This document shows, in pieces, positions 1,643-54,953 of a stretch of DNA of 64,000 bases; the first letter of the stretch is position 1; each line of letters starts with the position of its first letter. The translations under genes were made by a program, and so were the position numbers. The notes under the pieces are model-generated. The model did not search any database. It was not told the DNA's origin and worked only from the letters and a program-made list of their open reading frames with translations. The DNA comes from an uncultured Candidatus Rokubacteria bacterium (GTDB taxonomy: Bacteria > Methylomirabilota > Methylomirabilia > Rokubacteriales > CSP1-6): NCBI GenBank assembly GCA_963758635.1, contig CAVWWD010000003.1, positions 907,184-971,183 of the forward strand. Reading direction: 5' to 3'.

Positions 1643-1754
1643 GGTCGCACATGAGTGACGAGCCGGCGCTGCGCGTGGACGCGGAATCGCGGTATCGGCC
1701 CGCATGGCGAAGTCGAATTCCGGAGTCCTTCACACCCTCGACGAGGAGTCCGCG

Positions 1755-2543
1755 ATGCCGATAGATCCTCGCCATCCCAAGGAGATCCGCGCCGACATCC
1801 GCCGGGGCGCGCTCACCGGCGTCACCGCCGGCCTCGCCCCCGGGTTCGTGCAGGCGAACCTCGCGATCCTCCCGAGGGACGCGGCGTACGATTTCCTCCT
1901 CTTCTGCCAGCGGAACCCGCGTCCCTGTCCCCTGATCGAGGTGACCGACGTGGGCTCGCCGGAGCCGGTGGGCGTCGCCCCGGGGGCCGACCTGCGCACG
2001 GACCTGCCGAAGTACCGCATCTACAAGGACGGCGTCCTCGCCGACGAGGTCACCGACCTCACGCCGTTCTGGCGCGACGACCTCGTGTCGTTCCTCCTCG
2101 GCTGCTCGTTCACGTTCGAGTGGGCGCTGCTCGACGCCGGCATCCCGCTGCGCCACATCGACACGGGCAAGAACGTGGCGATGTGGAAGACGTCCATCGA
2201 CTGCCGGCCCGCCGGCCGCTTTCACGGGCCGATGGTCGTGTCCATGCGCCCCATCCCGCAGGCGATGCTGCCCAAGGCGGTGACGGCCTCCGCGCGCTTC
2301 CCGGGCGCCCACGGCGCGCCCATCCACATGGGCGACCCGGCCGCGATCGGCATCGCCGACGTGGACCGGCCGGACTGGGGCGACTCGGTCGGCGTGCGCG
2401 CCGGCGAGGTTCCCGTGTTCTGGGCCTGCGGCGTGACCCCGCAGGCGGTGGCGCTGGCGTCGAAGCCGTCGTTCATGATGACCCACAGCCCCGGCCACAT
2501 GTTCATCACCGATGTCCCGAACCACGCGCTGTCGGTGATGTGA
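1755..2543 (+). CDS. DUF1445 family putative hydro-lyase (D-glutamate cyclase-like)
   Basis: ORF 1704..2543; ATG at 1755 preceded by gaggag RBS; conserved QANLAILP...DFLLFCQRNPRPCP block typical of DUF1445. Confidence 0.55.
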   Translation: MPIDPRHPKEIRADIRRGALTGVTAGLAPGFVQANLAILPRDAAYDFLLFCQRNPRPCPLIEVTDVGSPEPVGVAPGADLRTDLPKYRIYKDGVLADEVTDLTPFWRDDLVSFLLGCSFTFEWALLDAGIPLRHIDTGKNVAMWKTSIDCRPAGRFHGPMVVSMRPIPQAMLPKAVTASARFPGAHGAPIHMGDPAAIGIADVDRPDWGDSVGVRAGEVPVFWACGVTPQAVALASKPSFMMTHSPGHMFITDVPNHALSVM

Positions 2544-2594
2544 CATGGGCAACGCGCAGCGGTTCTCCGTTCCCGCCTGAGCGGGCCAACCGCC

Positions 2595-3356
2595 GTGGGC
2601 CTCTACGCCGAGCCGCGCCTGGCCCCGTGCGGCGACCTCGCCGTGGCCGTGGAGCTGGGCGACGAGATCAGCCGCGAGGTCAACGAGCGCGTCCTCGCCC
2701 TCGACTCGTTGATCGCCACGCGGGCCGTCCCCGGCATCGTCGAGACCGTCCCGAGCTTCCGCTCGCTCCTGGTCTACTACGAGCCGCGGGTCGTGTCGCA
2801 CCAGGCCTTGGCCGCCACGCTCCGCGCCCTCGCCGCGGAGGCGGGCGCGGCGCCGCCGGCGGCGGCGCGGACGGTCGAGCTCCCGTGCTGCTACGGCGGC
2901 GAGCTGGGCTTCGAGCTGGCCGCGGCGGCCAGGCGCCTGGGCCTCGCCGAGGACGAGGTGGCCCGCCTGCACGCGACGGCCGACTACCACGTCTACTTCG
3001 TGGGGTTCACGCCGGGGCTCCCGTACCTGGCGGGCATGCCCGACGCGCTGGCGATCCCGCGGCTCGAGACCCCGCGCACCCGCACGCCTCCGGGCAGCGT
3101 GTCCATCGGCGGCTCGCAGTGCTGCATCTACTCGGTGGAGAGCCCGGGCGGGTTCTGGGTGCTCGGGCGGACGCCGCTGCGGCTCTACGACCCGCGTGCC
3201 GCCGACCCGATCCTGCTCCGCGCGGGGGACCGCGTGCGCTTCCGCGCGATCGATCGAGCGGAGTTCGACGCGATCGCCGCCGCCGTGGCCGCGGGCGAGT
3301 TCCGGCCCCTCATTGGGGCGACCCCAGGAGAGACCCGGGGGGAGGCCCGGCCCTGA
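2595..3356 (+). CDS. pxpB: 5-oxoprolinase subunit B (PxpB / KipI, allophanate-hydrolase subunit 1 family)
   Basis: ORF 2595..3356; characteristic LAVAVELGDEI...VNERV...IVETVPSFRSLLVYYEP pattern. Confidence 0.65.
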   Translation: MGLYAEPRLAPCGDLAVAVELGDEISREVNERVLALDSLIATRAVPGIVETVPSFRSLLVYYEPRVVSHQALAATLRALAAEAGAAPPAAARTVELPCCYGGELGFELAAAARRLGLAEDEVARLHATADYHVYFVGFTPGLPYLAGMPDALAIPRLETPRTRTPPGSVSIGGSQCCIYSVESPGGFWVLGRTPLRLYDPRAADPILLRAGDRVRFRAIDRAEFDAIAAAVAAGEFRPLIGATPGETRGEARP

Positions 3357-8840: not shown

Positions 8841-10317
8841 ATGGCCGCCACGCGTCCGAGTTACGACAAGCTGATCTTCGAGCTGTCCGCGCCGGGGCGG
8901 TTCGCCCACTCGCTGCCCGCCGCCGACGTGCCGGTGACGGATCCCGCCGCGCTCCTGCCCGCCGCCTTCGTGCGGCCGGCCCCGCCCGAGCTGCCCGAGG
9001 TGTCCGAGGTGGACGTGGTCCGCCACTACTCGCGCCTGTCGCAGATGAACTACGGGCTCGACACGCACTTCTACCCGCTCGGCTCCTGCACGATGAAGTA
9101 CAACCCGAAGATCAACGAGGACATGGCGCGCCTGCCCGGCTTCGCGCGGCTGCACCCGCTCACCCCCGCGGCGGCCGCGCAGGGCGCGCTCCAGGTCATG
9201 CACGAGCTGGCCCGGGACCTCGCCGAGGTCTCGGGCATGGATCACGTCTCGCTCCAGCCCGCGGCGGGGGCGCAGGGCGAGCTGGCCGGCGTGCTGATGA
9301 TCCGCGCCTGGCACCTCTCCCGCGGCGAGCGGCGCCACAAGGTCCTCGTCCCGGACTCCGCGCACGGCACCAACCCCGCCACCACCGCGCTCGCCGGCTT
9401 CCAGGTGGTCGAGCTCACGTCCGAGGCGACCGGCGAGGTCGACCTCGGCGACCTCGAGAAGAATCTGTCCGAGGACGTGGCCGCGTTCATGATCACGCAG
9501 CCGAACACGCTCGGCATGTTCGAGTCGCGGATCCACGCAGATCACCGAGATGTGCCACGCCCGCGGCGTCCAGGTGTACATGGACGGGGCGAACTTCAAC
9601 GCGATCCTCGGCATCACGCGCCCGGGCGACCTCGGCTTCGACGTGTGCCACTTCAACCTGCACAAGACGTTCACGACGCCGCACGGGGGCGGCGGGCCGG
9701 GCGCGGGCCCGGTGGGCGTGAAGGCGCACCTCGCGCCGTTCCTGCCCACGCCGGTCGTGGCGCAGCGCGCGGACGGCGCCTACGACCTCGACTGGCGACG
9801 GCCGCAGTCCATCGGCAAGCTCGTCACGTTCTGGGGCCACTTCGGCATGTTCGTGCGCGCCCTCGCCTACATCCGCACCATGGGCGGAGACGGGCTGCGC
9901 GCGGTGTCCGACAACGCCGTCCTCAACGCCAACTACGTGCTCCGGCGCCTCGAGGGCCACTACGACCGCTCGGCTCCCGGGCCGTGCATGCACGAGTGCG
10001 TCGTGTCGGCGCGGCGCCAGAAGAAGCTCGGCGTCACCGCCATGGACATCGCCAAGCGGCTCCTGGACCTGGGCTTCTACGCGCCCTCGACGTACTTCCC
10101 GCTGATCGTCGAGGAAGCGCTGATGATCGAGCCCACCGAGACGGAGTCCCGGGAGACCCTCGACGCGTTCTGTGACGCCCTGGTGCAGATCGCGCGCGAG
10201 GCCGAGACCGACCCCGCGGTCATCCACGAGGCTCCGGTGACCACGCCGGTGCGGCGGCTCGACCAGACGCTGGCCGCGCGGCGGCCGGTGCTGCGGTGGA
10301 CGCCGCCCGCCCGGTGA
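8841..10317 (+). pseudogene. gcvPB: glycine dehydrogenase subunit 2 interrupted by a single extra base near 9538
   Basis: N-terminal 230 aa in ORF 8841..10175, C-terminal 255 aa in ORF 9550..10317 (+1 frame); removing one c from cacg[c]agatcaccgag restores ...[28 protein letters not shown]. Confidence 0.75.
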
Positions 10318-26844: not shown

Positions 26845-26957
26845 CCGGCCGGGCGGGGCTCCCAACCGCCCCGGGGAACCGCGCGCGGCTCTCGGCGGTT
26901 AGCCATGCGTCCGTGGGCGGACGCGCATCTTCCTCAAACCAACGGAAGGAGATCGGC

Positions 26958-27518
26958 ATGACCAGGAGACGGCACCTCACGTGCGCCGTCCTGGCGGGCA
27001 TGATCGGGATCCTGGCCCTGGCCGGCGTCGCGCACGCGCAGACGCTCGAGGTCGGCCAGAAGGCCCCCGATTTCACGCTCGCCGGGCCGGGCAACAAGCC
27101 CGTGAAGCTCTCGGAGCTGCTCGGGAAGGGCCCCGTCGTCGTCTACACGTTCATCCAGGCCTTCACCGCGACCTGAATCAAGGAGATCGGCGACTTCGAG
27201 GCGAACCTCGCCCAGTTCGAAGCCGCCAACGCCCAGGTCGTGGGTGTGAGCGCCGATCACGTTGCGACCCTCGATGCCTTCCGCAAGGCCAACCCGACCA
27301 AGCACCTGCTGCTCTCCGACTTCCGGCGCACCATGCTGCCGGCATGGGGCGCGCTGAACACCGACGAGAAGAGCCCGATCTTCCGCTACGCCAAGCGGAC
27401 GTGGTTCATCCTCGACCGCGAGGGCACCGTCCGGTGGAAGAAGATCAACGACAACGCGCTGGACCTCCTCAAGGCCGACGAGGTGCTCAAGGCGCTCAAG
27501 GACTCGGGCGCGTCATGA
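26958..27518 (+). CDS. candidate selenoprotein: secreted AhpC/TSA-family peroxiredoxin, in-frame UGA 27174-27176 at the peroxidatic Cys position (FTAT-U)
   Basis: ORF ending at 27176 (...KAPDFTLAGPG...VVYTFIQAFTAT*) and ORF 27240..27518 share frame 0 with only that single TGA between them; ATG 26958 after ggaagga RBS; signal peptide MTRRRHLTCAVLAGMIGILALAGVAHA. Confidence 0.6.
27189..27212 (+). promoter_or_regulatory. putative bacterial SECIS-like hairpin 12 nt downstream of the UGA (ggcga...cgagg-cgaa-cctcg...tcgcc)
   Basis: Hand-folded; imperfect stem with bulge. Confidence 0.3.
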
Positions 27519-28042
27519 CACGGTCCGTCGCCGCCATGGCGCTGGCGCTCGTCGTGAGCGCCATGGCGGTGGCGTCCGCCGCCGCGCCCGCGTTCGAGCT
27601 CAACACGTACGCCCCGCGGAAGGCCGCGCCCGCGTTCTCCCTGCCCAACCTCGACGGGCGCGGGGTGTCCCTGGAGAGCCTCCGGGGAAAGGTCGTCCTC
27701 CTCTTCTTCTGGGCCACCTGGTGACCGACCTGCCGGAAGGAGTTGCCTTCCGTCAATCGGCTGCACACGGAGTTGAAGGATCGGGGGCTCGAGGTCGTGC
27801 TGGTGACGTTCCGGGAGTCGCCCGAGGTCGTGGCGCGGGCGGTGCGCGAGCGCGGCTACGTCGCCCCCGTGCTGATCGACGCGAGCGGCGACGTCACGGG
27901 CAGGCTCTACGGTGTCTTCGGCCCCCCCACCGCGTACCTGATCGACCGTAAGGGACAGCTCGTCGCGCGGATCGTCGGCGAGCGCGACTGGTCGACCCCG
28001 GAGGCGCGGGCCACGCTCTCGCGCCTGCTCGAGGAAAGGTAA
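27515..28042 (+). CDS. candidate selenoprotein: secreted TlpA/ResA-like thioredoxin-fold thiol:disulfide oxidoreductase, in-frame UGA 27722-27724 replacing the first Cys of CxxC (W-U-P-T-C)
   Basis: ORF 26981..27724 tail (MTRSVAAMALALVVSAMAVASAAAP...LLFFWATW*) and ORF 27743..28042 are in one frame across a single TGA; ATG 27515 overlaps the upstream stop (ATGA). Confidence 0.6.
27734..27752 (+). promoter_or_regulatory. putative bacterial SECIS hairpin: 7-bp stem cggaagg/ccttccg with AGUUG apical loop, 10 nt after the UGA
   Basis: Perfect inverted repeat seen in sequence; G/U-containing loop as in known bSECIS. Confidence 0.4.
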
Positions 28043-32507: not shown

Positions 32508-33105
32508 TTAGCGTGCCTTCACCAGGAAGTGGGCGTGCCGGTTGCGCTGCCAGCAACTCTCGCTCTTCTCGGTGCACACCGGGCGCTCCTCGCCGTAGGA
32601 GATGATCGTGATGCGATTGGCCTGGACGCCCTGGGTCACCAGGTAGTTCATCGTCGCCTTCGCCCGGCGCTCGCCGAGCGCCAGGTTGTACTCGTTCGTG
32701 CCGCGCTCGTCACAGTGTCCCTCGATCAGGACCAGCATGGTGCCGTTCGACTTGAGCCAGCTCGAGTTGTCGTCGAGGATCTTCGCGTCGCTCGGACGGA
32801 TGTCGTACTTATCGAAGTCGAAGTACACGTCCTTGAGCGCCGTGTTCTCCGCGAACTCGCTGGGCGCGGGCGGCGTCGCGGGCGCGGCGGTCGCCGGCGC
32901 GGGCGGCGGGGGCCGGCGCGGGGGCGGAGGCCGACGGCGTCGACGGTGAGGCGGCCGCAGGGGCGCTCGGGGCCATCGCGGCGGGGGCCGCGGGAGCCGG
33001 TGCGGATGCCGCCGTCGTGGCGGGCCGCTTCGGGCACCCCACCAGGAACAGCGCGGCGATGAGCAGGGGCATCACCAGGAGCGAGCTACCGCGTCCGTGC
33101 CGCAT
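32508..33105 (-). pseudogene. pal: peptidoglycan-associated lipoprotein Pal with frameshift in the Ala/Pro-rich linker (~32895-32905)
   Basis: N-terminus MRHGRGSSLLVMPLLIAALFLVGC (ORF 32809..33153 frame, ATG 33105 after ggagg RBS); OmpA-like C-terminus ...PSEFAENTALKDVYFDFDKYDIRP... (ORF 32508..32828) one base out of frame. Confidence 0.7.
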
Positions 33106-33213
33106 AGCCTCACATCCTCCTTGTGAACAACCGTTGGAGCCCGACCGGGCCATCGAAAGAGCGTCCCGCCGCGGGATCGCCGATGTCCTCGCTAACTTTT
33201 CGCCGAGAGTCTA

Positions 33214-34554
33214 TCACGGAAGCCGCGGGGACCAAGCGGGACTTGCCGCGTCTCCCGCGCCGCGCGGCACCGCGTGCTGCTCGGAGCCGTCGGCGAGCAT
33301 CGTGAAGAGCCCGATGCCGCGCCCGCGCGTGGACTGGAACACGAGGTGACGGCCGTTCGGCGACCAGGACGCGCTCTCGTTGTCGCCGGGCCCCGCGGTG
33401 AGCCGCCGCGCACCGCTGCCGTCCGGGCCCACCGCCCACAGGTCGTGATTGCCCTGCCGCGAGGTGTAGACGATCGCGTCGCCCTTGGGCGACCAGCGCG
33501 GCTGGGTGTTGAAGCCGCCCTGGGTGATGCGCCGGACGTTCGTGCCCTCCGCGTCCATCACGTAGACCTGTGCCGCGCCGCTGCGATCCGACACGAAGGC
33601 GATCTCGCGGCCCGTGGGCGACCACGACGGCTCGGTATCGATCCCCGGATGCGTGGTCACCCGGCGGAACGTACCGGCGGCCACGTTCAGGACGTAGACC
33701 TCCGGGTTGCCGTCCTTCGACAGGGTGAGGGCCACCGATCGCCCATCCGGGCTCCACGCGGGCGAGCTGTTGATGCCGAGGTGGCCGGCGAGGAGCTGCA
33801 CGGGGCGGCGCTCGAACGGGAACATGCGGTAGAGGTACGGATAGCCGCGCATGAACGACGTGAACGCGAGCGAGCGCGTGTCGGGGCTCCACGCCGGCGA
33901 CATGTTGATCGACTGGTTCGCGGTGAGGGCGGCCACGCCCACCCCGTCGTAGTCCATGAGCTGGAGCTCGCGCACGCCGCGCTGCGGGGTGATGAACGCG
34001 ATCTTGGTGTCGGCGATGCCGGCCTCGCCCGTGAACTGGAGCACCACCTCGTCGGCGATGCGGTGGGCGAGCCGCCGGGACTCGGCCGGCGGCACCGCGA
34101 ACGTCTTGGTCGCGATCTGGCGCTGCTCGGGCGACGTGAGGTCGTAGAGGCGCATCTCCGCCTCCGCGCGGTCCGCGCCCGCCCGCACCACCCCGTGGAG
34201 CGCGGCGTGCGCGCCCGCCGCGGCGGCGTCGGCCCACGCCTTGCGGAGCGCCTCGGCGTCGCCGGGCGGCGGCGCGGGGGCCCCCGCCACCACGTTGAAG
34301 AGCGCGGAGAACGTGAGGTCCTTGCCCGCGACCTCGGAGAGCCGGCGGCCCAGGGTGGGATCGGCGGCGGCGCCCGTGACCGCGAACTCCGGCACGAAGA
34401 TGTTCAGCCGCTGGGCGCCGCTGCGCATCACGTTCAGGAACACGTCGGCGCCCTGCGATCGCGCGGGGGGCGCGCCGGTGAGGACGAGCCCCGCCGTCAC
34501 CACGAGCACGGCGGCGAGCAGGGCCAGGAATCCGCGGAAGGGGCTCATCGGCAT
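33214..34554 (-). CDS. tolB: Tol-Pal system beta-propeller protein TolB
   Basis: C-terminal 446 codons of ORF 33214..35349; ATG at 34554; repeated ...SPAWSPDG.. / WSP.G.. propeller motifs. Confidence 0.85.
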   Translation of the reverse strand: MPMSPFRGFLALLAAVLVVTAGLVLTGAPPARSQGADVFLNVMRSGAQRLNIFVPEFAVTGAAADPTLGRRLSEVAGKDLTFSALFNVVAGAPAPPPGDAEALRKAWADAAAAGAHAALHGVVRAGADRAEAEMRLYDLTSPEQRQIATKTFAVPPAESRRLAHRIADEVVLQFTGEAGIADTKIAFITPQRGVRELQLMDYDGVGVAALTANQSINMSPAWSPDTRSLAFTSFMRGYPYLYRMFPFERRPVQLLAGHLGINSSPAWSPDGRSVALTLSKDGNPEVYVLNVAAGTFRRVTTHPGIDTEPSWSPTGREIAFVSDRSGAAQVYVMDAEGTNVRRITQGGFNTQPRWSPKGDAIVYTSRQGNHDLWAVGPDGSGARRLTAGPGDNESASWSPNGRHLVFQSTRGRGIGLFTMLADGSEQHAVPRGAGDAASPAWSPRLP

Positions 34555-35349
34555 CAGCCTCGCTCGGGTCGGAGCTCGAAACGGAACATCACGCGCAGCG
34601 ATGCGCGGCTCCAGTCCTGGGGAAGGGGCGGGAATGGGCTGGCGTCGGCGATGGCCCGCAGCGCGGCCTGATCGTAGAACGTGTTGCCCGACGTCTTCTC
34701 GATCCTCGGCGGCCGGATCGACCCGTCCCGCTGGATCTCGACCATGATGAACGGCTTCTGGGCCGGCGCCTGCGTCGGCCCCTGGCGCTGCCACTGGTCC
34801 TCGACCTTCTGGAGCACCTGCCGCAGGTACCACGCGTACGGGAAGTCCGAGACGTCGAGGGCGAGGGTCCCCACGCCGGTCACCGACCCCGTGGCCAGGC
34901 CGGCGGGCGGAGGCGGGGCGGGCCGCGCCTCCACCGGATCGCCTGCGCGCGAGGCGGTGGGAGGCGGCGCGGGCCGTGGTTGCCGATCGGCGGGGCTGGA
35001 CAGCGGCGGCGCCTCCTTGTCCCCGGGCCGGGGCAGGGCCACCGGCCGCGACGGCAGCTGCGGGAGCGCCGGCGGGCTGTTCGGAAGCTGGACCGGCTCG
35101 CGCGCCCGCGCCTCGCGGGGCGCCGGCTCGGGAAGCTTGACCTCCCGCGTGGGCGGCACGACGGTCGGACGAGTCGGCAGGGGCGGACGCGACTCGCCCC
35201 GGGGCGTGCCGACGGCGGCCACCGCGGGCACGAGGTTCACCACGTAGGTCTTCGAGGTCTCCCAGCCGCTCCACACCACCAGCGCGGCGAGGCCGCCGAG
35301 CAGCGACGACGTGGCCGATGGCCGAGATGGTCAGCGCGGCCACGGGCAC
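34554..35349 (-). pseudogene. tolA: TolA (TonB-family C-terminal domain) with frameshift near ~35300
   Basis: ORF 34554..35279 has a Pro-rich linker and TonB_C domain; its TM helix (SSLLGGLAALVVWSGW) lies upstream in the same frame but is closed by a stop; start MPVAALTISAIGHVV is in the ORF 33214..35349 frame. Confidence 0.45.
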
Positions 35350-35442
35350 GCGGGGGCGCGTGAGGGCGAGGCTCGGGCGCCGGGGCGACCACGAGAGGGA
35401 GCCCGCGCGCGGGCGCGGGATAGCTCTCCGCGCCGAGGGCGC

Positions 35443-35881
35443 TCAGCGTTCCCTCGTGGGCTCGGTGACCATGCCGAGCTTTTCCACGCCGGCCCTGCGG
35501 ATCCGGTCCATGGTCTCGACCACGAACCCGTACTGGAGCGCCTGGTCGGCCTTCAAGTAGAGCGTCTTGTCGGTCCGGTCCTTCATGGTCTCGCGCAGCC
35601 GCCCGTCGAGCCCCGACATGGGCACCGGCTTGTCGTTCAGGAAGACGGTCTGGTCCTTCGTCAGGGTCAGCACCAGGCGCTCCTCGGTGGCGGTGGGGCG
35701 GCCGGTGCTCTTGCGGCAGGTTCACGTCGATCCCGCGATGCATCAGGGGCGCGGTCAGCATGAAGATCAGGAGGAGGACGAGGATCACGTCCACCAGCGG
35801 GATGATGTTGATCTCCGAGAGCGTGGGTCCGATCCGGTACGCCCCGCCGCTTCCCTCCGACGACTCGAGCCTAAACGCCAT
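35443..35881 (-). pseudogene. tolR: TolR/ExbD with an extra base at 35710
   Basis: N-terminus MAFRLES...EINIIPLVDVILVLLLIFMLTAPLMHRGIDVNLPQ (ORF 35237..35881) and C-terminus STGRPTATEERLVLTLTKDQTVFLNDKPV... (ORF 35443..35673) are out of phase by exactly one nucleotide. Confidence 0.65.
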
Positions 35882-36608
35882 CTTTCACCCGCGCGGCCTT
35901 CGGGGCCGGCCGCGCGAAGAGGTTGAGCAGGTCGAGGGCGAAGCCTTCCATCTCCGTGGCCCAGTGCTTCACGCGGTTGACGAAGAAGTTGTACGCCATG
36001 ACGGCGGGAATGGCCGCGCCCAGGCCGGCCGCCGTCGCGATGAGCGCCTCCGAGATGCCCGGAGCCACCACGGCGAGGCTCGCCGAGCCCTGCTGCCCGA
36101 TGCCGTGGAAGGCGGCCATGACGCCCCACACCGTGCCGAAGAGGCCGATGAAGGGCGCGGCGCTGGCCGTGGTGGCGAGGAAGGGCAGGAACCGCTCCAT
36201 GCGGGAGACCTCGCCCGCCGCGGCGCGTCGCATCGCGCGATTCACCGCGTCCACGCGCTCGGGCCCGAGGCCGTCCTCCGCCTCGTCGAGGGCGTGGTCG
36301 ATCATGTCCGCGCCCCCGAGCGCGCCGCCCGCCTCCTGGCAGCCCGCGACGTAGAGCTGGGCGAGGGGACTGTCGCGGTACTTCTTGGCCGCGGCGAAAA
36401 CGGCCGAGAACCGCCGGCCTTCGCGGAAGACCTTGAGGAACCGCACCGACTCCCGGCGGATCTTCCTGAACTGCCACCACTTCTCGACCATCAGCGCCCA
36501 GCAGACGACGGAGAGGACGCAGAGCACCAACAGGACGACCTTCGCCATCGGGCCCGCGTTGAGGACGAGCTCGAACACGCTCGAGTCGAGGGATCCGCTG
36601 CCTTGCAC
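35871..36608 (-). CDS. tolQ: TolQ/ExbB proton-channel protein
   Basis: Part of ORF 35871..36758; GTG 36608 six nt after aaggag RBS; GLFGTVWGVMAAF and PGISEALIATAAGL motifs. Confidence 0.8.
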   Translation of the reverse strand: MQGSGSLDSSVFELVLNAGPMAKVVLLVLCVLSVVCWALMVEKWWQFRKIRRESVRFLKVFREGRRFSAVFAAAKKYRDSPLAQLYVAGCQEAGGALGGADMIDHALDEAEDGLGPERVDAVNRAMRRAAAGEVSRMERFLPFLATTASAAPFIGLFGTVWGVMAAFHGIGQQGSASLAVVAPGISEALIATAAGLGAAIPAVMAYNFFVNRVKHWATEMEGFALDLLNLFARPAPKAARVKDGV

Positions 36609-36829
36609 TCGGAGCTCCTTATCGCGTGGCTCGGGGACGAACCGGGAATTGCTTCCGAATGATACAGAAGGGTCCGGAAACGTGTCAATCAATTGACACC
36701 GAAAGCAGTCGCGCCGTATAAGCTGGCGAAGGGTTTTTCCATGCTCATCCCCGCGCACTCCCGTCGTTCGACGCGCCCCACGCCGCCCGTATTCCGCCCG
36801 GAGGCGGTGAAAGCGCGGCCGGCGCGCCC

Positions 36830-37615
36830 ATGATGTTCCGCTCGCCGGGCCCGATCGCCTTCCAGATCGGCCCGTTCAGCCTCCGCTGGTACGGAATCCT
36901 GATGGCCACCGCGATGGCGCTCGGCCTCTGGCTCGCGTACCGCGACGCGCAGCGCCGCCACCTGGATCCCGAGAGCCTCCTGAAGGCCGCGGAGCTCGCG
37001 CTCCTCGGCGGCCTCGTGGGCGCCCGCCTCTACTACGTGCTGTTCAACCTCGACCACTACCTCCCGAACCCGGCCAAGATCGTCGCGGTGTGGGAGGGGG
37101 GGCTCGCGATCCACGGCGGCGTGATCGGGGGCATCCTCGTCGGGGGCGGCTACGCGATGCGCCGGGGGCTCCCGGTGGCGAAGTACCTCGACATCGCGGC
37201 GCCGAGCCTGGCCCTCGGGCAGGCGATCGGGCGCTGGGGCAACTTCTTCAACGAGGAGGCCTTCGGCACCCCCACGGAGCTGCCGTGGAAGCTCTTCATC
37301 TCGCCCGCGCACCGGCCCCTGATCTACGCCCAGGACCAGTTCTTCCACCCCACGTTCCTGTACGAGTCGCTCTGGGACCTGGGCGTGTTCGCGATCGTCT
37401 ACTGGGTCCTCCGCGACCGGTTCGCCCGGGCGCCGGGGGCGCTGTTCCTCGCCTACGTCGGTCTCTACTCGCTAGGCCGCTTCGTGACCGAGGGGATCCG
37501 CACCGATCCCCTGATGCTCGGGCCGCTCCGCATCGCCCAGGTGGTGAGCGTGCTCGGCGTCGCCGCCGCGATCGTGGCCGTCCCGCTCCTGCTCCGGCGC
37601 GCCCGCCAGGCGTAA
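36830..37615 (+). CDS. lgt: prolipoprotein diacylglyceryl transferase
   Basis: ORF 36830..37615; RWGNFFNEEAFG signature. Confidence 0.85.
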   Translation: MMFRSPGPIAFQIGPFSLRWYGILMATAMALGLWLAYRDAQRRHLDPESLLKAAELALLGGLVGARLYYVLFNLDHYLPNPAKIVAVWEGGLAIHGGVIGGILVGGGYAMRRGLPVAKYLDIAAPSLALGQAIGRWGNFFNEEAFGTPTELPWKLFISPAHRPLIYAQDQFFHPTFLYESLWDLGVFAIVYWVLRDRFARAPGALFLAYVGLYSLGRFVTEGIRTDPLMLGPLRIAQVVSVLGVAAAIVAVPLLLRRARQA

Positions 37616-37629
37616 ACGCCGGCCGGACC

Positions 37630-38421
37630 GTGCACTTCGCGTTCCTCGGCACGTCCAGCGCGCTTCCGTCGCCCCGTCGCGACAACACCGCGATGGTGTT
37701 CGTGGGGCGGAGCGACTCCGTCCTCGTCGATTGCGGCGGCAGCCCGCTGCAGAAGCTGCTCCTCGCCGCGGTGGATCCCGCCACCCTGGCCCACGTGGTG
37801 ATCACCCACCTCCACGTGGACCACGCCTACGGTCTCCCCGCGCTGGTGCAGAGCCTGATCCTGACGCGACGCGAGGCGCCCCTCACGGTGTCGTGCCGCG
37901 AGGAGCACGTCGAGCCGCTGCGGGCCGTCCTGGGCGCGTTCGGGCTTCTCGGCCGCCCGGGCGCGTTCCCGCTCGAGCTCGTCGGGGTGCCGGCGCGGCA
38001 GGGCGCGCCGGTGGCGGCCACCGCGTCGTTCAGGATCACCGCCGCGCCGAACGATCACGGGACCATGCCGAACCTCGCCGTCCGCGTCGAGGCGGCAGGC
38101 GGGGGCACGGTCGTGTACTCCTCCGACACCGCGCCGTGCGACGCCGTCGTGGAGCTCGCGCGGGGCGCGGAGACGCTCGTCCACGAGGCCACGTTCACCG
38201 CCGCCCGCGAGTCGCCGCGGGTCGGCGCGCACTCCACGGCCGCCGAGGCGGGCGAGATCGCGGCGCGCGCGGGCGTCCGGCGGCTGATCCTGACCCACAT
38301 CGACCCGGCCTTCCACGACGACCCGGCATCGCTCGTCCGCGAGGCGGCCGCGCGCTTCCCGGGCGAGGTGGAGATCGCCGAGGAGCTCGTGCCGTATCCC
38401 ATTCCGGCCCGCGCGTCATGA
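37630..38421 (+). CDS. MBL-fold metallo-hydrolase (RNase Z / beta-lactamase superfamily-like)
   Basis: Frame of ORF 37090..38421 from GTG 37630; HFAFLGTSSALPS...HLHVDHAYGL. Confidence 0.55.
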   Translation: MHFAFLGTSSALPSPRRDNTAMVFVGRSDSVLVDCGGSPLQKLLLAAVDPATLAHVVITHLHVDHAYGLPALVQSLILTRREAPLTVSCREEHVEPLRAVLGAFGLLGRPGAFPLELVGVPARQGAPVAATASFRITAAPNDHGTMPNLAVRVEAAGGGTVVYSSDTAPCDAVVELARGAETLVHEATFTAARESPRVGAHSTAAEAGEIAARAGVRRLILTHIDPAFHDDPASLVREAAARFPGEVEIAEELVPYPIPARAS

Positions 38422-39227
38422 CCGGCCCGGCGGGGACGGGCGGCGGCGAGGAGCCTCGAAAAGGCATGAGCCGGCGGCCGTTTCTACTTCGATTTCCATG
38501 TGCGCTCGGCTCGCCTGCGGCTCACCTCGCGAGCGCTATACGCAGCCGGGACGGCCGCCACCGGCTCTACGCCCGCGACAGCCGGGACCTGTCTCCGATC
38601 GCCACCGGGAGCGTCGGCGTCATCGTGACCTCACCGCCCTACTGGCAGTCCGGACGCGGGGTTGCCGCGGCCGATCGCTACGCGAGGACGCTCGCCGAGC
38701 GGTTCAGCCCGGAGTGGCGCCGCGTGCTCTCGCCCGGGGGAGATCTCTGGATCGTCATCGGCGACCGTCACGACGGCCGCGAATGGGCGGGGATCGACGG
38801 CCTCCTCACGAGCTGGCTCAGGCAAGCGGGGTTCGGGCTTCAGGCCAAGGGGTGCTGGGCCCAGACACGCTCGCGCGAGCGGTGGTACGACCGCATCAAC
38901 CACGTCCTTCGCTTCCGGAAGGCCCGCCGGCGCGCGCGGCCCACCTCCACGACGCTCGCCTGGATGCTGCCGCTCCCGCGCTCCCATCGCGAGAGCCAAT
39001 GGGACGCCACGCCGGACCCGATCATCCGGACGGCCATCTCGGAGAGCGCCCGGCGCGGCGCCGTCCTCGATCCGTTCGCGGGCGCGGGCACGGTGGGGCT
39101 CGTCGCCGCAGCCATGGGACGAGCCTGGATCGGCGTGGAGCGCGATCCGAAGATGGCTGCCCTGGCCGCCCGCCGGCTCGGCCTTCGTCCGATAACGGGC
39201 CCCGGAGCGCGTCCCGCCGGCGTGTAA
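38418..39227 (+). CDS. DNA methyltransferase (N6-adenine/N4-cytosine type)
   Basis: Frame of ORF 37731..39227 from ATG 38418 (ATGA overlap); SPPY catalytic motif and DPFAGAGT AdoMet motif; no restriction-enzyme partner seen. Confidence 0.55.
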   Translation: MTGPAGTGGGEEPRKGMSRRPFLLRFPCALGSPAAHLASAIRSRDGRHRLYARDSRDLSPIATGSVGVIVTSPPYWQSGRGVAAADRYARTLAERFSPEWRRVLSPGGDLWIVIGDRHDGREWAGIDGLLTSWLRQAGFGLQAKGCWAQTRSRERWYDRINHVLRFRKARRRARPTSTTLAWMLPLPRSHRESQWDATPDPIIRTAISESARRGAVLDPFAGAGTVGLVAAAMGRAWIGVERDPKMAALAARRLGLRPITGPGARPAGV

Positions 39228-39426
39228 GACTTGCCTGGGCCGTGCCACTTTGGCACGGCAACGCTGTTCCAAGTTCCTCGCGAGCAGCTTCCAAGGCATT
39301 GCCACATCTTGCCGATTCGGTGCGGCGGCCCTGCGTGGCATGGGCGTTGCTCCTCCAGGGACCCACGGCACGCCGGCCTTGCTGGCGCGCCGGACGACCT
39401 TCACAGCTTCCAAGGAGGATGTACCG

Positions 39427-40153
39427 ATGAGAGGCACGCGGATCAGCTTGGCGTTGATCGGGGCCGTGACGTTCCTGTCCGTCGGATGCGCGACGAGGGC
39501 GTACGTGCGGGAGCAGGTGCAGCCTACCCAGGCGCAGCTGGCCCAGACCAACCAGCGGGTCGACGCGCAGGAGACTCAGCTGAAGCAGAACGTCGAGCCT
39601 CTCCGAGACCAGCCGCATGCGGCTCGACACCCTCGACGGGCGCATGGGCGAGACGCAGACGACGGCGAACCGCGCGGCCGCTCGCGCCGAGGAAGCGGCG
39701 GGCAGCGCGGCCGAGGCCAACCGGAAGGTCGACTCCGTGTCGGAGCAGGTACGCGACCTCGACGGGCGGCTCACGGCGCGGATCGCCAACCGCAACAAGT
39801 TCAGCTCCCTCGACACCCGCAGCATCTTCTTCGACTCCGGCAGGTCTGACCTGAAGGACGAGGGCATGACGATGCTCCTCGAGGTGGCCAAGGCCCTGAA
39901 GGAAGACCCCAACGCGATCGTTGAGCTGCGCGGGCACACCGATGGTGTGGGCAACGAGCGGCAGAACGTGCTCCTCTCCCGGGAGCGCGTGGACGCCGTC
40001 GTGCGCTATCTCGTGCAGAAGGAAGGCGTCGAGCTGCGGCGCATCCACTCGGTGGGACTGGGCAAGGCCGTGCCCGTGGCCGATAACAACACCCGCGAGG
40101 GTCGCGCCAAGAACCGGCGGGTCGACGTGACGTTGCTGTCTCCCCAGAGCTGA
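39427..40153 (+). pseudogene. OmpA-family lipoprotein (coiled-coil + OmpA_C) with frameshift near 39603
   Basis: ATG 39427 after aaggagg RBS, lipobox FLSVGC (ORF 39250..39849 frame); OmpA C-domain ...ELRGHTDGVGNERQNVLLSRERV in ORF 39617..40153. Confidence 0.6.
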
Positions 40154-53234: not shown

Positions 53235-54953
53235 ATGCAGCACGTGGAGACGTTCACCGCCGGGGAGCGCCGGGCGCTCGCGCCGTACGTCACCAACCTC
53301 GACGGCCCCGTCTTCGCCCTCGTCAACCTCCCGGAGGTCGTCAAGGGCGCCCTCTTCGCGCGCTACTCGCGCTCGGCCAAGTCCCTGCGCCGGCTCTTCC
53401 TCGACGAATTCCTCGGCGCGGGCGACCTTGAGGACGCGCCGATGCCCGTCGCCGACGTGGCGAGCATCGGCACCACGCGGGCCGACGCGCTCTACGCCCG
53501 CATGCTCAGCGAGTACGGCGACGACTCCGTCGCCCAGCTCGGGGGCGTCCACCTCGCGTGCGAGGGCGCGTCGAACCTCCTGACCAAGGTCCTCGAGTGG
53601 GGCCGCCTCATGGCCTACCTCGAGCAGTCCACCCGCTACGTGCCGTACACCGATCGGCCCGGCGGCGCGTGGAAGTATCACGTCCCCGCCGAGCTCGCCG
53701 GGCATCCTCTCCGCGCGCGCTTCGTGGAGACGCTCGACCGCGCCTTCGAGACCTACGCGCGGTGGATCGACCCGCTGCGCGAGCACTGGGGCAACCAGAT
53801 CGCGCGGGCCGCCGGCGAGTCCGACGCCGTCCGGCGCACGACGATCCGTGCCCGCGCGCTCGACAGCCTGCGCGGGCTGCTTCCCGCGGCCACGCGGTCG
53901 AACGTGGGCATCTTCGGGACGGCGCAGGCCTACGAGGCCCTGCTGCTCCGGATGCGCGGGCACGGCCTCGCCGAGGTGCGCGAGTACGCGGAGCTGATGA
54001 AGGCGGAGCTGGACAAGGTCGTCCCCGCGTTCCTCCAGCGCCTCGACCGGCCCGAGCGGGGCGGGACGTGGGCCGAGTACCTGCGGACCGCGCGCGAGGC
54101 CACGCAGGCGGTGGCCGACGAGCTGCTGGAGGATGTGGAGCCGGAGCCGCGCGCCGAGGTGACCCTGACCGACTTCGACCCCGACGGCGAGGTGAAGGTC
54201 GTCGCCGCCGCGCTCTACGCCGCGACCGCGCTGCCCGACGACCAGCTCCTGGCCATCGCCAGGAAGCTCGGCGAGGAGGAGCGCCACCGCGTGCTCGCGG
54301 CCTACGTCGGCGCCCGCGAGAACCGCCGGCACAAGCCCGGCCGCGCCTTCGAGCGCACGTCGTACCGCTTCGACGTGCTCGGCGACTACGGCGCCTTCCG
54401 GGACCTCCAGCGCCACCGGCTGCTCACGCTCGAGTGGCAGCGCCTGTCGCCACGCCACGGCTTCGCGGTGGGCGACGAGATCGCGGAGGTGGGGGCCGCC
54501 GCGGACTGGACGCGCGTGATGGACGAGACGGCGGCGCTCCACGACGCGCTCGCCGGGGCCGGCCTCGGCGTGGTGGCGCCGTACGCCGTGCCCATGGCCT
54601 ACCGCGTCCGCTTCTACATGGAGATGAACGCGCGCGAGGCCATGCACGTGATCGAGCTGCGCACGACGCCGCAGGGGCACCCCGCGTACCGGCGCATCTG
54701 CCAGGCCATGCACCGGCTGATCGCCGATCAGGCCGGCCACCGCGCGCTCGCCCGCGCCATGCGTCACGCCGACGTTCTCGGCCGGGGAGTCCGGCCGCCG
54801 CGACGCCGAGCGCGCGGCCGAGCGCCGCCGCCAGTCCGGCGCCTGACCGACCCCGACCGCGCCCGCCCACCGCGGACGCGTCTTCCTTCGGTCGTCCGCT
54901 CCGCCCCGGTCGCCCCGTCCGATTTTAATTGGTTGACTGACCAATCAAGATAA
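53235..54953 (+). CDS. long-form flavin-dependent thymidylate synthase (ThyX-like); tentative
   Basis: ORF 53235..54953; ...FRDLQRHRLLTLEWQRLS resembles the ThyX RHR motif; C-terminal ~60 aa low-complexity may be mis-framed. Confidence 0.35.
   Translation: MQHVETFTAGERRALAPYVTNLDGPVFALVNLPEVVKGALFARYSRSAKSLRRLFLDEFLGAGDLEDAPMPVADVASIGTTRADALYARMLSEYGDDSVAQLGGVHLACEGASNLLTKVLEWGRLMAYLEQSTRYVPYTDRPGGAWKYHVPAELAGHPLRARFVETLDRAFETYARWIDPLREHWGNQIARAAGESDAVRRTTIRARALDSLRGLLPAATRSNVGIFGTAQAYEALLLRMRGHGLAEVREYAELMKAELDKVVPAFLQRLDRPERGGTWAEYLRTAREATQAVADELLEDVEPEPRAEVTLTDFDPDGEVKVVAAALYAATALPDDQLLAIARKLGEEERHRVLAAYVGARENRRHKPGRAFERTSYRFDVLGDYGAFRDLQRHRLLTLEWQRLSPRHGFAVGDEIAEVGAAADWTRVMDETAALHDALAGAGLGVVAPYAVPMAYRVRFYMEMNAREAMHVIELRTTPQGHPAYRRICQAMHRLIADQAGHRALARAMRHADVLGRGVRPPRRRARGRAPPPVRRLTDPDRARPPRTRLPSVVRSAPVAPSDFNWLTDQSR

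Follow-up and report, generated by a model that had tools for sequence, protein, structure and literature searches.

A predicted operon of two exported selenoproteins, one peroxiredoxin-like and one TlpA/ResA-like, in Rokubacteria/Methylomirabilota

Background

Peroxiredoxins that carry selenocysteine (Sec, U) in a TxxU motif (Sec-Prx; COG1225/PF00578) and peroxiredoxin-like (Prx-like) proteins with a UxxC motif (PF00578) have been predicted selenoproteins since 2005, and few selenoprotein families were more abundant than these two in the Sargasso Sea and Global Ocean Sampling (GOS) surveys (PMC1088965, PMC2398784, PMC13188914). A 2026 review lists Sec-Prx as experimentally supported and the Prx-like UxxC family as "predicted with high confidence" (PMC13188914). 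Here we analyze two adjacent genes that resemble these families and are each interrupted by one in-frame UGA codon. They lie on the forward strand of a 64,000-nucleotide stretch of contig CAVWWD010000003.1 (the window), from an uncultured Candidatus Rokubacteria bacterium. We consider it highly likely that they form a translationally coupled operon for two genuine selenoproteins of a Rokubacteria/Methylomirabilota bacterium. To our knowledge, PrxU of Eubacterium acidaminophilum is the only Sec-Prx that has been demonstrated biochemically.

Selenoprotein genes are known to occur in clusters, which include Prx/SelW-like, Prx-like/AhpD-like, frhA-frhD-hdrA, SAO, and Tso arrangements, and the GOS data contained a single Prx/Prx-like 2 read (PMC13188914, PMC2398784). 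The closest described protein partnership is the envelope peroxide pathway of Caulobacter crescentus, in which ScsB reduces TlpA and TlpA reduces PprX, an exported protein of the BCP/PrxQ type (PMC3322552).

Two genes with UGA codons at catalytic positions

Gene 1 (positions 26958 to 27518) starts with an ATG at 26958 and stops with a TGA at 27516 to 27518. A Shine-Dalgarno-like AAGGAG can be read from the sequence 6 nucleotides 5' of the start (26946 to 26951). The 186 codons include a single in-frame TGA at 27174 to 27176 (U73), which translation places in the context GPVVVYTFIQAFTAT-U-IKEIGDFEANL (that is, ...YTFIQAFTAT-U-IKEIGDF). Gene 2 (27515 to 28042) runs on the same strand from an ATG at 27515 to a TAA at 28040 to 28042. 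It has 175 codons, and its only in-frame TGA (27722 to 27724; U70) falls in the context ...VVLLFFWATW-U-PTCRKELPSV.... The start of gene 2 and the stop of gene 1 share the sequence ATGA (27515 to 27518), an overlap that points to translational coupling. The boundaries, TGA positions, overlap, and preserved frame given in the original prediction for this DNA all proved correct on translation. Its family assignments and its placement of both TGAs at redox-active residues are borne out by the comparisons below.

The product of gene 1 resembles BCP/PrxQ peroxiredoxins. With U written as C, as was done for the Pfam searches of both products, it matches AhpC-TSA (PF00578) at 4.4e-26 and passes the cut-off of that family. 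The nearest solved structures are BCP/PrxQ proteins, with Aeropyrum BCP (2cx3) matching at 1.7e-24 over residues 3-152, and a further match (8e-23) is to 2ywn, which its depositors named "peroxiredoxin-like protein". The U falls on the peroxidatic Cys of both structures (aFTatC versus aFSpvC), and the relatives P0124, P0125, P0126, P0128, P0130, and P0145 have Cys in this column. The active site reads I-x-x-F-T-x-x-U, while Cys-form members of the same clade have L-x-x-x-N-x-x-C. Among 42 distinct orthologues, the residue at position -3 from the Sec is Thr in 38, Asn in 3, and Ala in 1, and 38 also contain the catalytic Arg motif [AG][KQR]R.[YWF][FV][IV][ILV][DN]; R147 is invariant in alignment A4 of the relatives.

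The mature gene 1 protein has no Cys in any of these 42 orthologues, which would make Sec its sole redox-active chalcogen residue. In particular, position +5, where archaeal BCPs have their resolving Cys, is never Cys, and the lack of a resolving Cys implies a protein of the 1-Cys/1-Sec type. Gene 1 scores far under the cut-off of every NCBIfam peroxiredoxin equivalog; the PrxU model NF040737, for example, gives 28.5 bits against a cut-off of 270.

The product of gene 2 contains the motif W-U-P-x-C and matches AhpC-TSA (1.1e-26), Redoxin (3.4e-24), and also Thioredoxin_8 in Pfam. Its closest matches in the Protein Data Bank (PDB) are 3kcm (2.4e-30), ResA (4e-26), and TlpA (1jfu; 1.2e-15). Here the U coincides with the first, nucleophilic Cys of the WCxxC motif in 3kcm and ResA (4nmu), and the relatives P0001, P0007, and P0013 have Cys at the U column. 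The Cys-form relatives of both proteins belong to the same phylum. P138 and T139, in the cis-Pro loop (GPPT), are invariant in alignment A1, and all 42 orthologues contain exactly one Cys, that of U-x-x-C. Bit scores stay under the NCBIfam cut-offs for ResA (101/170), the WAxxUGC_long model (76/300), TlpA (71.7/230), and DsbE (60/123). By sequence, gene 2 is thus assignable to the general TlpA/ResA-like family but to no named equivalog. It represents a W-U-P-x-C-R-x-E-L-P clade from soil and groundwater Methylomirabilota.

Additional Sec TlpA-like subfamilies occur in metagenomes, with the contexts ...NFWATW-U-PNCRKE[AG]PSF... and ...W-U-PYCRKERSALQ.... They are found at loci L101, L119, L120, L136, L155, L165, L169, L187, L189, L194, L210, and L211, and further at L112, L121, L156, L160, and L201. 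Their downstream hairpins are shifted in register, and no Prx gene lies 5' of them where the upstream sequence suffices.

Conservation of the UGA codons and reading frames

A protein search with the joined gene 2 product returned full-length proteins of about 180 amino acids (45-65% identity) plus far more fragments of about 100 amino acids (66-98% identity). All of the retrieved fragments begin with L/MPSVN or LPPVN directly after the TGA, as expected of gene-caller output from a UGA-containing orthologue. In each fragment-bearing contig the gene 2 frame contains exactly one TGA, at W-*-P-x-C. The joined gene 1 product likewise found more than 100 C-terminal fragments of 102-113 amino acids (69-82% identity), several of which NCBI names "redoxin domain-containing protein" from Candidatus Rokubacteria or Methylomirabilota. 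Contigs with five such fragments have the same pair layout in differing neighborhoods.

The original prediction that gene callers would split the pair into four fragments is confirmed by L001, a locus 98% identical to the one studied here, for which the JGI calls are 72, 92, 69, and 100 amino acids long. L002-L004 and L006-L008 are also called as four fragments, and in L009-L011 the second piece has no Pfam match. L005 retains only the C-terminal half of its Prx gene before a split TlpA-like gene. At this locus (L005:5219-5779) the N-terminal half, including the Sec site, has been swapped for unrelated sequence and the downstream Sec-TlpA gene is intact. We considered and rejected L005 as a Cys-form Prx on the grounds of this replacement, which reflects a rearrangement or an assembly chimera.

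A metagenome scan with the pattern TGGNNNACNTGGTGACCNNNNTGCCG (W-x-T-W-TGA-P-x-C-R) recovered at least 120 stretches. Taking the scan, the earlier loci, and the window together, 106 of the 132 matches listed are intact TlpA-like open reading frames (ORFs) that run on through the TGA. Among these matches, the upstream Prx site is covered in 56 loci, and its codon is TGA in all of them and never TAA, TAG, or a sense codon. Nei-Gojobori estimates of Ka/Ks from 24 diverged loci, which are ungapped and thus rough, are 0.31 upstream and 0.46 downstream of the TGA in gene 1 and 0.27 and 0.32 in gene 2. Purifying selection acts on both genes, upstream as well as downstream of the TGA.

It is extremely improbable that the TGAs arose by nonsense mutation or sequencing error, which would leave a pair of pseudogenes, or that TGA has been reassigned to Trp or Gly. 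The splitting of both genes by gene callers would fit such an explanation, as would the Trp that some JGI calls place at the TGA. Pseudogenes and errors are refuted by the recurrence of the same TGAs in 56 and 106 independent loci (among the matches listed) with an ORF conserved on both sides, and the codon is always TGA. This recurrence in dozens of independently assembled, diverged loci also places the two in-frame TGAs far beyond chance, as had been argued from their adjacency. TGA is the commonest ordinary stop in the window, where it ends 33 of 52 called genes including gene 1, which indicates that it has not been reassigned. In addition, the Trp-containing JGI products run past the true stop. 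These products (P0121, P0122, P0123, and P0136) have Trp at both the Sec-site TGA and the true stop and are annotated as over-long "full-length" peroxiredoxins, so they are code-4 mistranslations of Sec forms made with the wrong caller code.

RNA hairpins downstream of the UGA codons

The published model of the bacterial selenocysteine insertion sequence (bSECIS) places the apical loop 16-37 nucleotides from the UGA on an upper stem of 4-16 base pairs, with a loop of 3-9 nucleotides and a minimum free energy (MFE) of -7.5 kcal/mol or lower (PMC13188914). It also requires a G in loop position 1 or 2, usually followed by G or U, and a subset of putative elements is known to break this consensus (PMC13188914). 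The hairpin in gene 2 (27734 to 27752, forward strand) fits the model. It begins 9 nucleotides past the UGA and consists of a 7-base-pair stem (CGGAAGG/CCUUCCG) and an AGUUG loop that starts 16 nucleotides past the UGA, with GU as its second and third nucleotides. Its MFE is -10.0 kcal/mol (z -3.36).

The stem in gene 2 is preserved by covariation. Across 90 distinct sequences, 90.5% of its cells are paired, compared to 51-64% when the 3' arm is slid, and three base pairs show changes on both sides. Variants include CGGAAGG/CCUUCCG, CGGGAGG/CCUCCCG, CGGAGGG/CCCUCCG, CGGGGGG/CCCCCCG, and CGCAGCC/GGCUGCG. These changes alter K/R/E and S/P residues jointly, which suggests that pairing rather than peptide sequence is preserved.

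Gene 1 contains a longer bSECIS-like stem-loop (27189 to 27227, forward strand) with a lower stem (CUUCGA/UCGAAG) that is longer in most orthologues, a 3' bulge, a 5-base-pair upper stem, and a triloop that begins 28 nucleotides past the UGA. Its MFE is -20.3 kcal/mol (z -3.39), so that both its spacing and its energy lie within the ranges of the bSECIS model. In 44 distinct orthologues 90% of the cells are paired, compared to 32-53% with partners slid, and six base pairs, or 24 cells, have changed on both sides.

These structures are associated with the Sec forms. In the 42 nucleotides past the codon, Sec forms have a mean z of -1.84 with 62% below -1.5, whereas 87 Cys-form TlpA homologues of equal G+C content (0.61) have a mean of +0.05 with 8% below -1.5. 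The control sequences are generic TlpA homologues of at most 46% identity, among the matches listed in a W-C-based contig scan. The hairpin is also lost in the Cys forms L212 (gene 2) and L215/L216 (gene 1). One TlpA-like orthologue in Cys form (TGC; L214:300-845) retains a full Sec-type hairpin, CGGGAGG-AGTTG-CCTTCCG, and therefore looks like a recent Sec-to-Cys switch or a population variant. No match was obtained when the window was scanned against Rfam at the gathering cut-offs, a result that is uninformative on SECIS elements, and we know of no general bacterial SECIS model in Rfam.

Sec incorporation at both UGAs is strongly supported by these sequence comparisons. The recoding first proposed from the reading frames agrees with the conserved TGAs, the alignment of U with catalytic Cys residues, covarying hairpins that are absent from Cys forms, and the use of TGA as a normal stop. 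Mechanistically, each in-frame UGA would be read as Sec when SelB and Sec-tRNA(Sec) are recruited by the stem-loop just downstream.

Coupling and predicted export of the pair

An (A/G)TGA overlap between the genes is found in 41 of 44 orthologous pairs, and gene 1 always stops with TGA. Among the matches listed, the Prx partner is kept in 56 of about 64 close TlpA-like orthologue loci. The genes that flank the pair differ from locus to locus and the pair persists, so only the two genes themselves make up the conserved unit. The original prediction had suggested that a downstream metallo-beta-lactamase (MBL)-fold hydrolase and a short-chain dehydrogenase/reductase (SDR) could belong to the same redox locus. 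We reject this linkage: of about 60 loci with a Prx gene, just two close relatives, L001 and L153, have them beside the pair, and the SDR lies on the opposite strand.

Signal peptides are predicted at both N termini, as anticipated: MTRRRHLTCAVLAGMIGILALAGVAHA with an AxA cleavage site in gene 1 (26958 to 27038) and MTRSVAAMALALVVSAMAVASA in gene 2 (27515 to 27580), both on the forward strand. In 24 orthologue pairs the N termini remain signal-peptide-like despite varying sequence, with a few basic residues, 12-20 hydrophobic residues, and AxA directly before the conserved mature start. For gene 1 this start agrees with the solved BCPs, which begin at residues equivalent to LEVGQKAPDF. These patterns strongly support the view that both proteins carry cleavable signal peptides and would act outside the cytoplasm. 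The RRR in gene 1 raised the question of a Tat signal, which we rejected for lack of a twin-arginine motif shared by the orthologues.

Points against the operon and the source of selenocysteine

Several observations weigh against an operon of two selenoproteins that act as a peroxidase couple. About eight close TlpA-like orthologues with sufficient upstream sequence have no Prx partner, and one mixed pair (L215/L216:4001-5046; GCA_036001065.1) combines a Prx gene that has TGT (Cys) and has lost its hairpin with an overlapping TlpA-like gene that has TGA. The gene 1 triloop contains no G (ACC in the window and CCU in most orthologues) and thus breaks the bSECIS loop rule. The residue at position -7 of gene 1 is Ile in 38 and Val in 4 of the 42 distinct orthologues, and it is Pro in none. 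No CcdA, DsbD, or ScsB gene is present among the Pfam-scanned genes of the window or in the flanks of L001-L011. Finally, the window contains no tRNA gene, ARAGORN finds no tRNA-Sec in any fetched locus, and tblastn detects no SelA, SelB, or SelD match in the window or the pair-bearing loci. The tblastn queries were Escherichia coli SelA, SelB, and SelD sequences, of which SelA alone was validated, by its match in L045.

The match in L045, a locus of a Nitrospirota metagenome-assembled genome (MAG), is a selA gene (L045:1014-2375, minus strand) 44% identical to E. coli SelA. It adjoins a divergently transcribed TlpA-like gene at 2739-3152.

The lineage is one in which Sec is expected. Cluster mates and homologues bear the names Candidatus Rokuibacteriota, Rokubacteria, or Methylomirabilota. 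PMC13188914 mentions a MAG of this phylum for which 63 selenoproteins were predicted (its reference 66), and group 4 hydrogenases of the Sec type are reported from Methylomirabilota (PMC13582414).

The UGAs might instead be recoded through SelB and the hairpins but read as Cys by a tRNA-Cys of the tRNA(ReC) type, whose anticodon is UCA, in which case both proteins would be ordinary Cys enzymes. A tRNA(ReC) that decodes UGA plus SECIS as Cys is described for several Sec-using phyla in PMC13582414, which cites Vargas-Rodriguez 2018, and the window, with no tRNA gene, offers nothing to separate this route from Sec. The phyla and groups reported there are Armatimonadota, Desulfobacterota, and JAPLJL01, not Methylomirabilota, and tRNA(ReC) accompanied the canonical tRNA-Sec and did not replace it (PMC13582414). 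Cys-form relatives of the pair have plain TGC or TGT codons and no longer carry the hairpin, which suggests that the costly UGA and hairpin are kept for something that Cys cannot give. We therefore judge Cys insertion to be very improbable.

Proposed redox couple

If both UGAs are read as Sec, then Sec would stand in for the peroxidatic Cys of a BCP/PrxQ-like protein in gene 1 and for the nucleophilic first Cys of CxxC in a TlpA/ResA-like protein in gene 2. By analogy with the Caulobacter TlpA to PprX step, the two proteins may be redox partners. Peroxide or a similar oxidant would oxidize the one selenolate in the gene 1 protein, and the U-x-x-C motif in the product of gene 2 could then restore the reduced form. 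The lack of any other Cys in the gene 1 protein favors recycling by this motif. The gene 2 protein might in turn be reduced again by a membrane electron transporter of the CcdA, DsbD, or ScsB type encoded elsewhere.

The pair may instead consist of two true selenoproteins in which gene 1 is no peroxidase and the pair is no peroxide relay. Other extracytoplasmic redox tasks could include protein sulfenate or methionine sulfoxide reduction, maturation of copper or cytochrome proteins, and the handling of selenium or sulfur species. The Pro of the PxxxTxxC motif has been described as "absolutely conserved" in peroxiredoxins. Its replacement by Ile or Val in 42/42 orthologues means that peroxidase activity is not assured, and a nonperoxidase role also fits the Asn or Ala at -3 in 4/42, the L-x-x-x-N-x-x-C motif of the Cys forms, and NCBIfam peroxiredoxin equivalog scores that are all far under the cut-offs. 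There is a precedent in Caulobacter PrxL, an exported Prx-like protein without the conserved residues that has no peroxidase activity (PMC3322552). TlpA and ResA relatives, moreover, normally serve cytochrome or Cu-center maturation. On the other side, the structures that match best by sequence belong to genuine BCP peroxidases (1.7e-24), whose peroxidatic Cys aligns with U, both Thr -3 and the catalytic Arg motif are kept in 38/42, and the layout of an exported BCP with a TlpA matches a demonstrated peroxide pathway. We regard a nonperoxidase role as a less probable explanation than the peroxide couple, though one to be taken seriously.

The original prediction of a secreted pair of Sec thiol oxidoreductases stands, but gene 1 is not a textbook peroxiredoxin, since its clade lacks both the Pro of PxxxTxxC and a resolving Cys. 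These same absences keep a peroxide relay at the level of a proposal.

A more specific version of the couple is also conceivable, and we think it unlikely. A Cys-free, Pro-less, single-Sec Prx-like enzyme and its TlpA-like partner could form an obligate extracytoplasmic couple that is recycled via an intermolecular diselenide (Se-Se), which is then resolved to an intramolecular Se-S bond. The gene 1 hairpin with no G in its loop would then represent a second SelB-binding class in the same operon. We know of no Se-to-Se relay described for any peroxiredoxin system, and none is present in the literature searched.

Other features of the window

The window has about 72% G+C throughout. An envelope cluster at 32511-40150 comprises genes for OmpA/Pal-like, TPR (YbgF-like), TonB/TolA-like, ExbD/TolR, and MotA/TolQ proteins and lgt. 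The Tol-Pal, OmpA-family, and Lgt genes indicate a diderm envelope.

Two same-frame ORFs parted by one TGA at 1659-3356 were evaluated as a third selenoprotein and rejected, as they are D-Glu-cyclase-like and carboxyltransferase CT_C_D genes. At 8841-10317, gcvPB (glycine-cleavage P-protein subunit 2) changes frame mid-gene near 9530-9545, after ...GMFESRI; this apparent one-base frameshift is an assembly error or marks a pseudogene. A 572-amino-acid ORF at 53235-54950, roughly double the normal length, contains two matched stretches of the ThyX (Thy1) domain and may represent a tandem duplication of ThyX.

Consequences for annotation

In public metagenomes and MAGs both genes are almost always split into four pieces called "hypothetical", "redoxin", or "peroxiredoxin", or they are mistranslated with Trp. 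At least one public annotation reads through, as the NCBI record for L216 has the TlpA-like gene as one 180-amino-acid product across the TGA. Rokubacteria/Methylomirabilota are a phylum widespread in soil and groundwater, and part of their selenoproteome escapes notice through this misannotation. The pair suggests that these bacteria spend selenium on extracytoplasmic redox defense. Each partner of this compact two-gene system exists in nature both with Sec and with Cys (L214, L215), and such variants are suited to tests of what Sec contributes to a Prx and to its reductant.

Comparison with known systems

The Caulobacter pathway and the pair described here share the combination of an exported BCP/PrxQ-type protein and an exported TlpA-like protein of thioredoxin fold. 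The proteins of the Caulobacter pathway are Cys enzymes, and PprX, unlike gene 1, combines a complete PxxxTxxC motif with a resolving Cys. Also unlike Caulobacter, no ScsB, DsbD, or CcdA lies near the pair, and here we infer the partnership solely from the coupling of the genes.

Gene 1 resembles the Sec-Prx family (TxxU) in its AhpC/TSA fold, Sec at the position of the peroxidatic Cys, Arg, and hairpin (PMC1088965, PMC13188914). It differs in having Ile or Val for the Pro of PxxxTxxU, a Cys-free mature protein, a signal peptide, and a hairpin loop without the consensus G, and it is not PrxU (under the NF040737 cut-off). Gene 2 resembles the Prx-like thiol:disulfide oxidoreductase "Prx-like 1" (for example, WP_010940744.1), which matches PF00578/Redoxin and has Sec first in UxxC (PMC2398784, PMC13188914). 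The likeness extends to a TlpA/ResA-like fold and a canonical bSECIS with its AGUUG loop 16 nucleotides from the UGA. Gene 2 departs from this family in belonging to the distinct W-U-P-x-C-R-x-E-L-P clade, in being coupled to a Sec-Prx gene, and in scoring under the NCBIfam cut-offs for ResA, TlpA, and the WAxxUGC selenoprotein model.

Like the known selenoprotein clusters, this operon joins two selenoprotein genes, which suggests a common redox process (PMC13188914, PMC2398784). A combination of Prx (TxxU) with a TlpA-type Prx-like protein (UxxC) is not among the clusters in these two papers. The kind of protein is already known, as both selenoprotein families are long established. What the present pair adds, as judged from sequence, is the conserved double-selenoprotein operon of a Prx and a TlpA-like protein, a Prx clade with neither the canonical Pro nor any Cys, a hairpin in gene 1 whose loop departs from the consensus, and the widespread misannotation of these genes in Rokubacteria/Methylomirabilota data.

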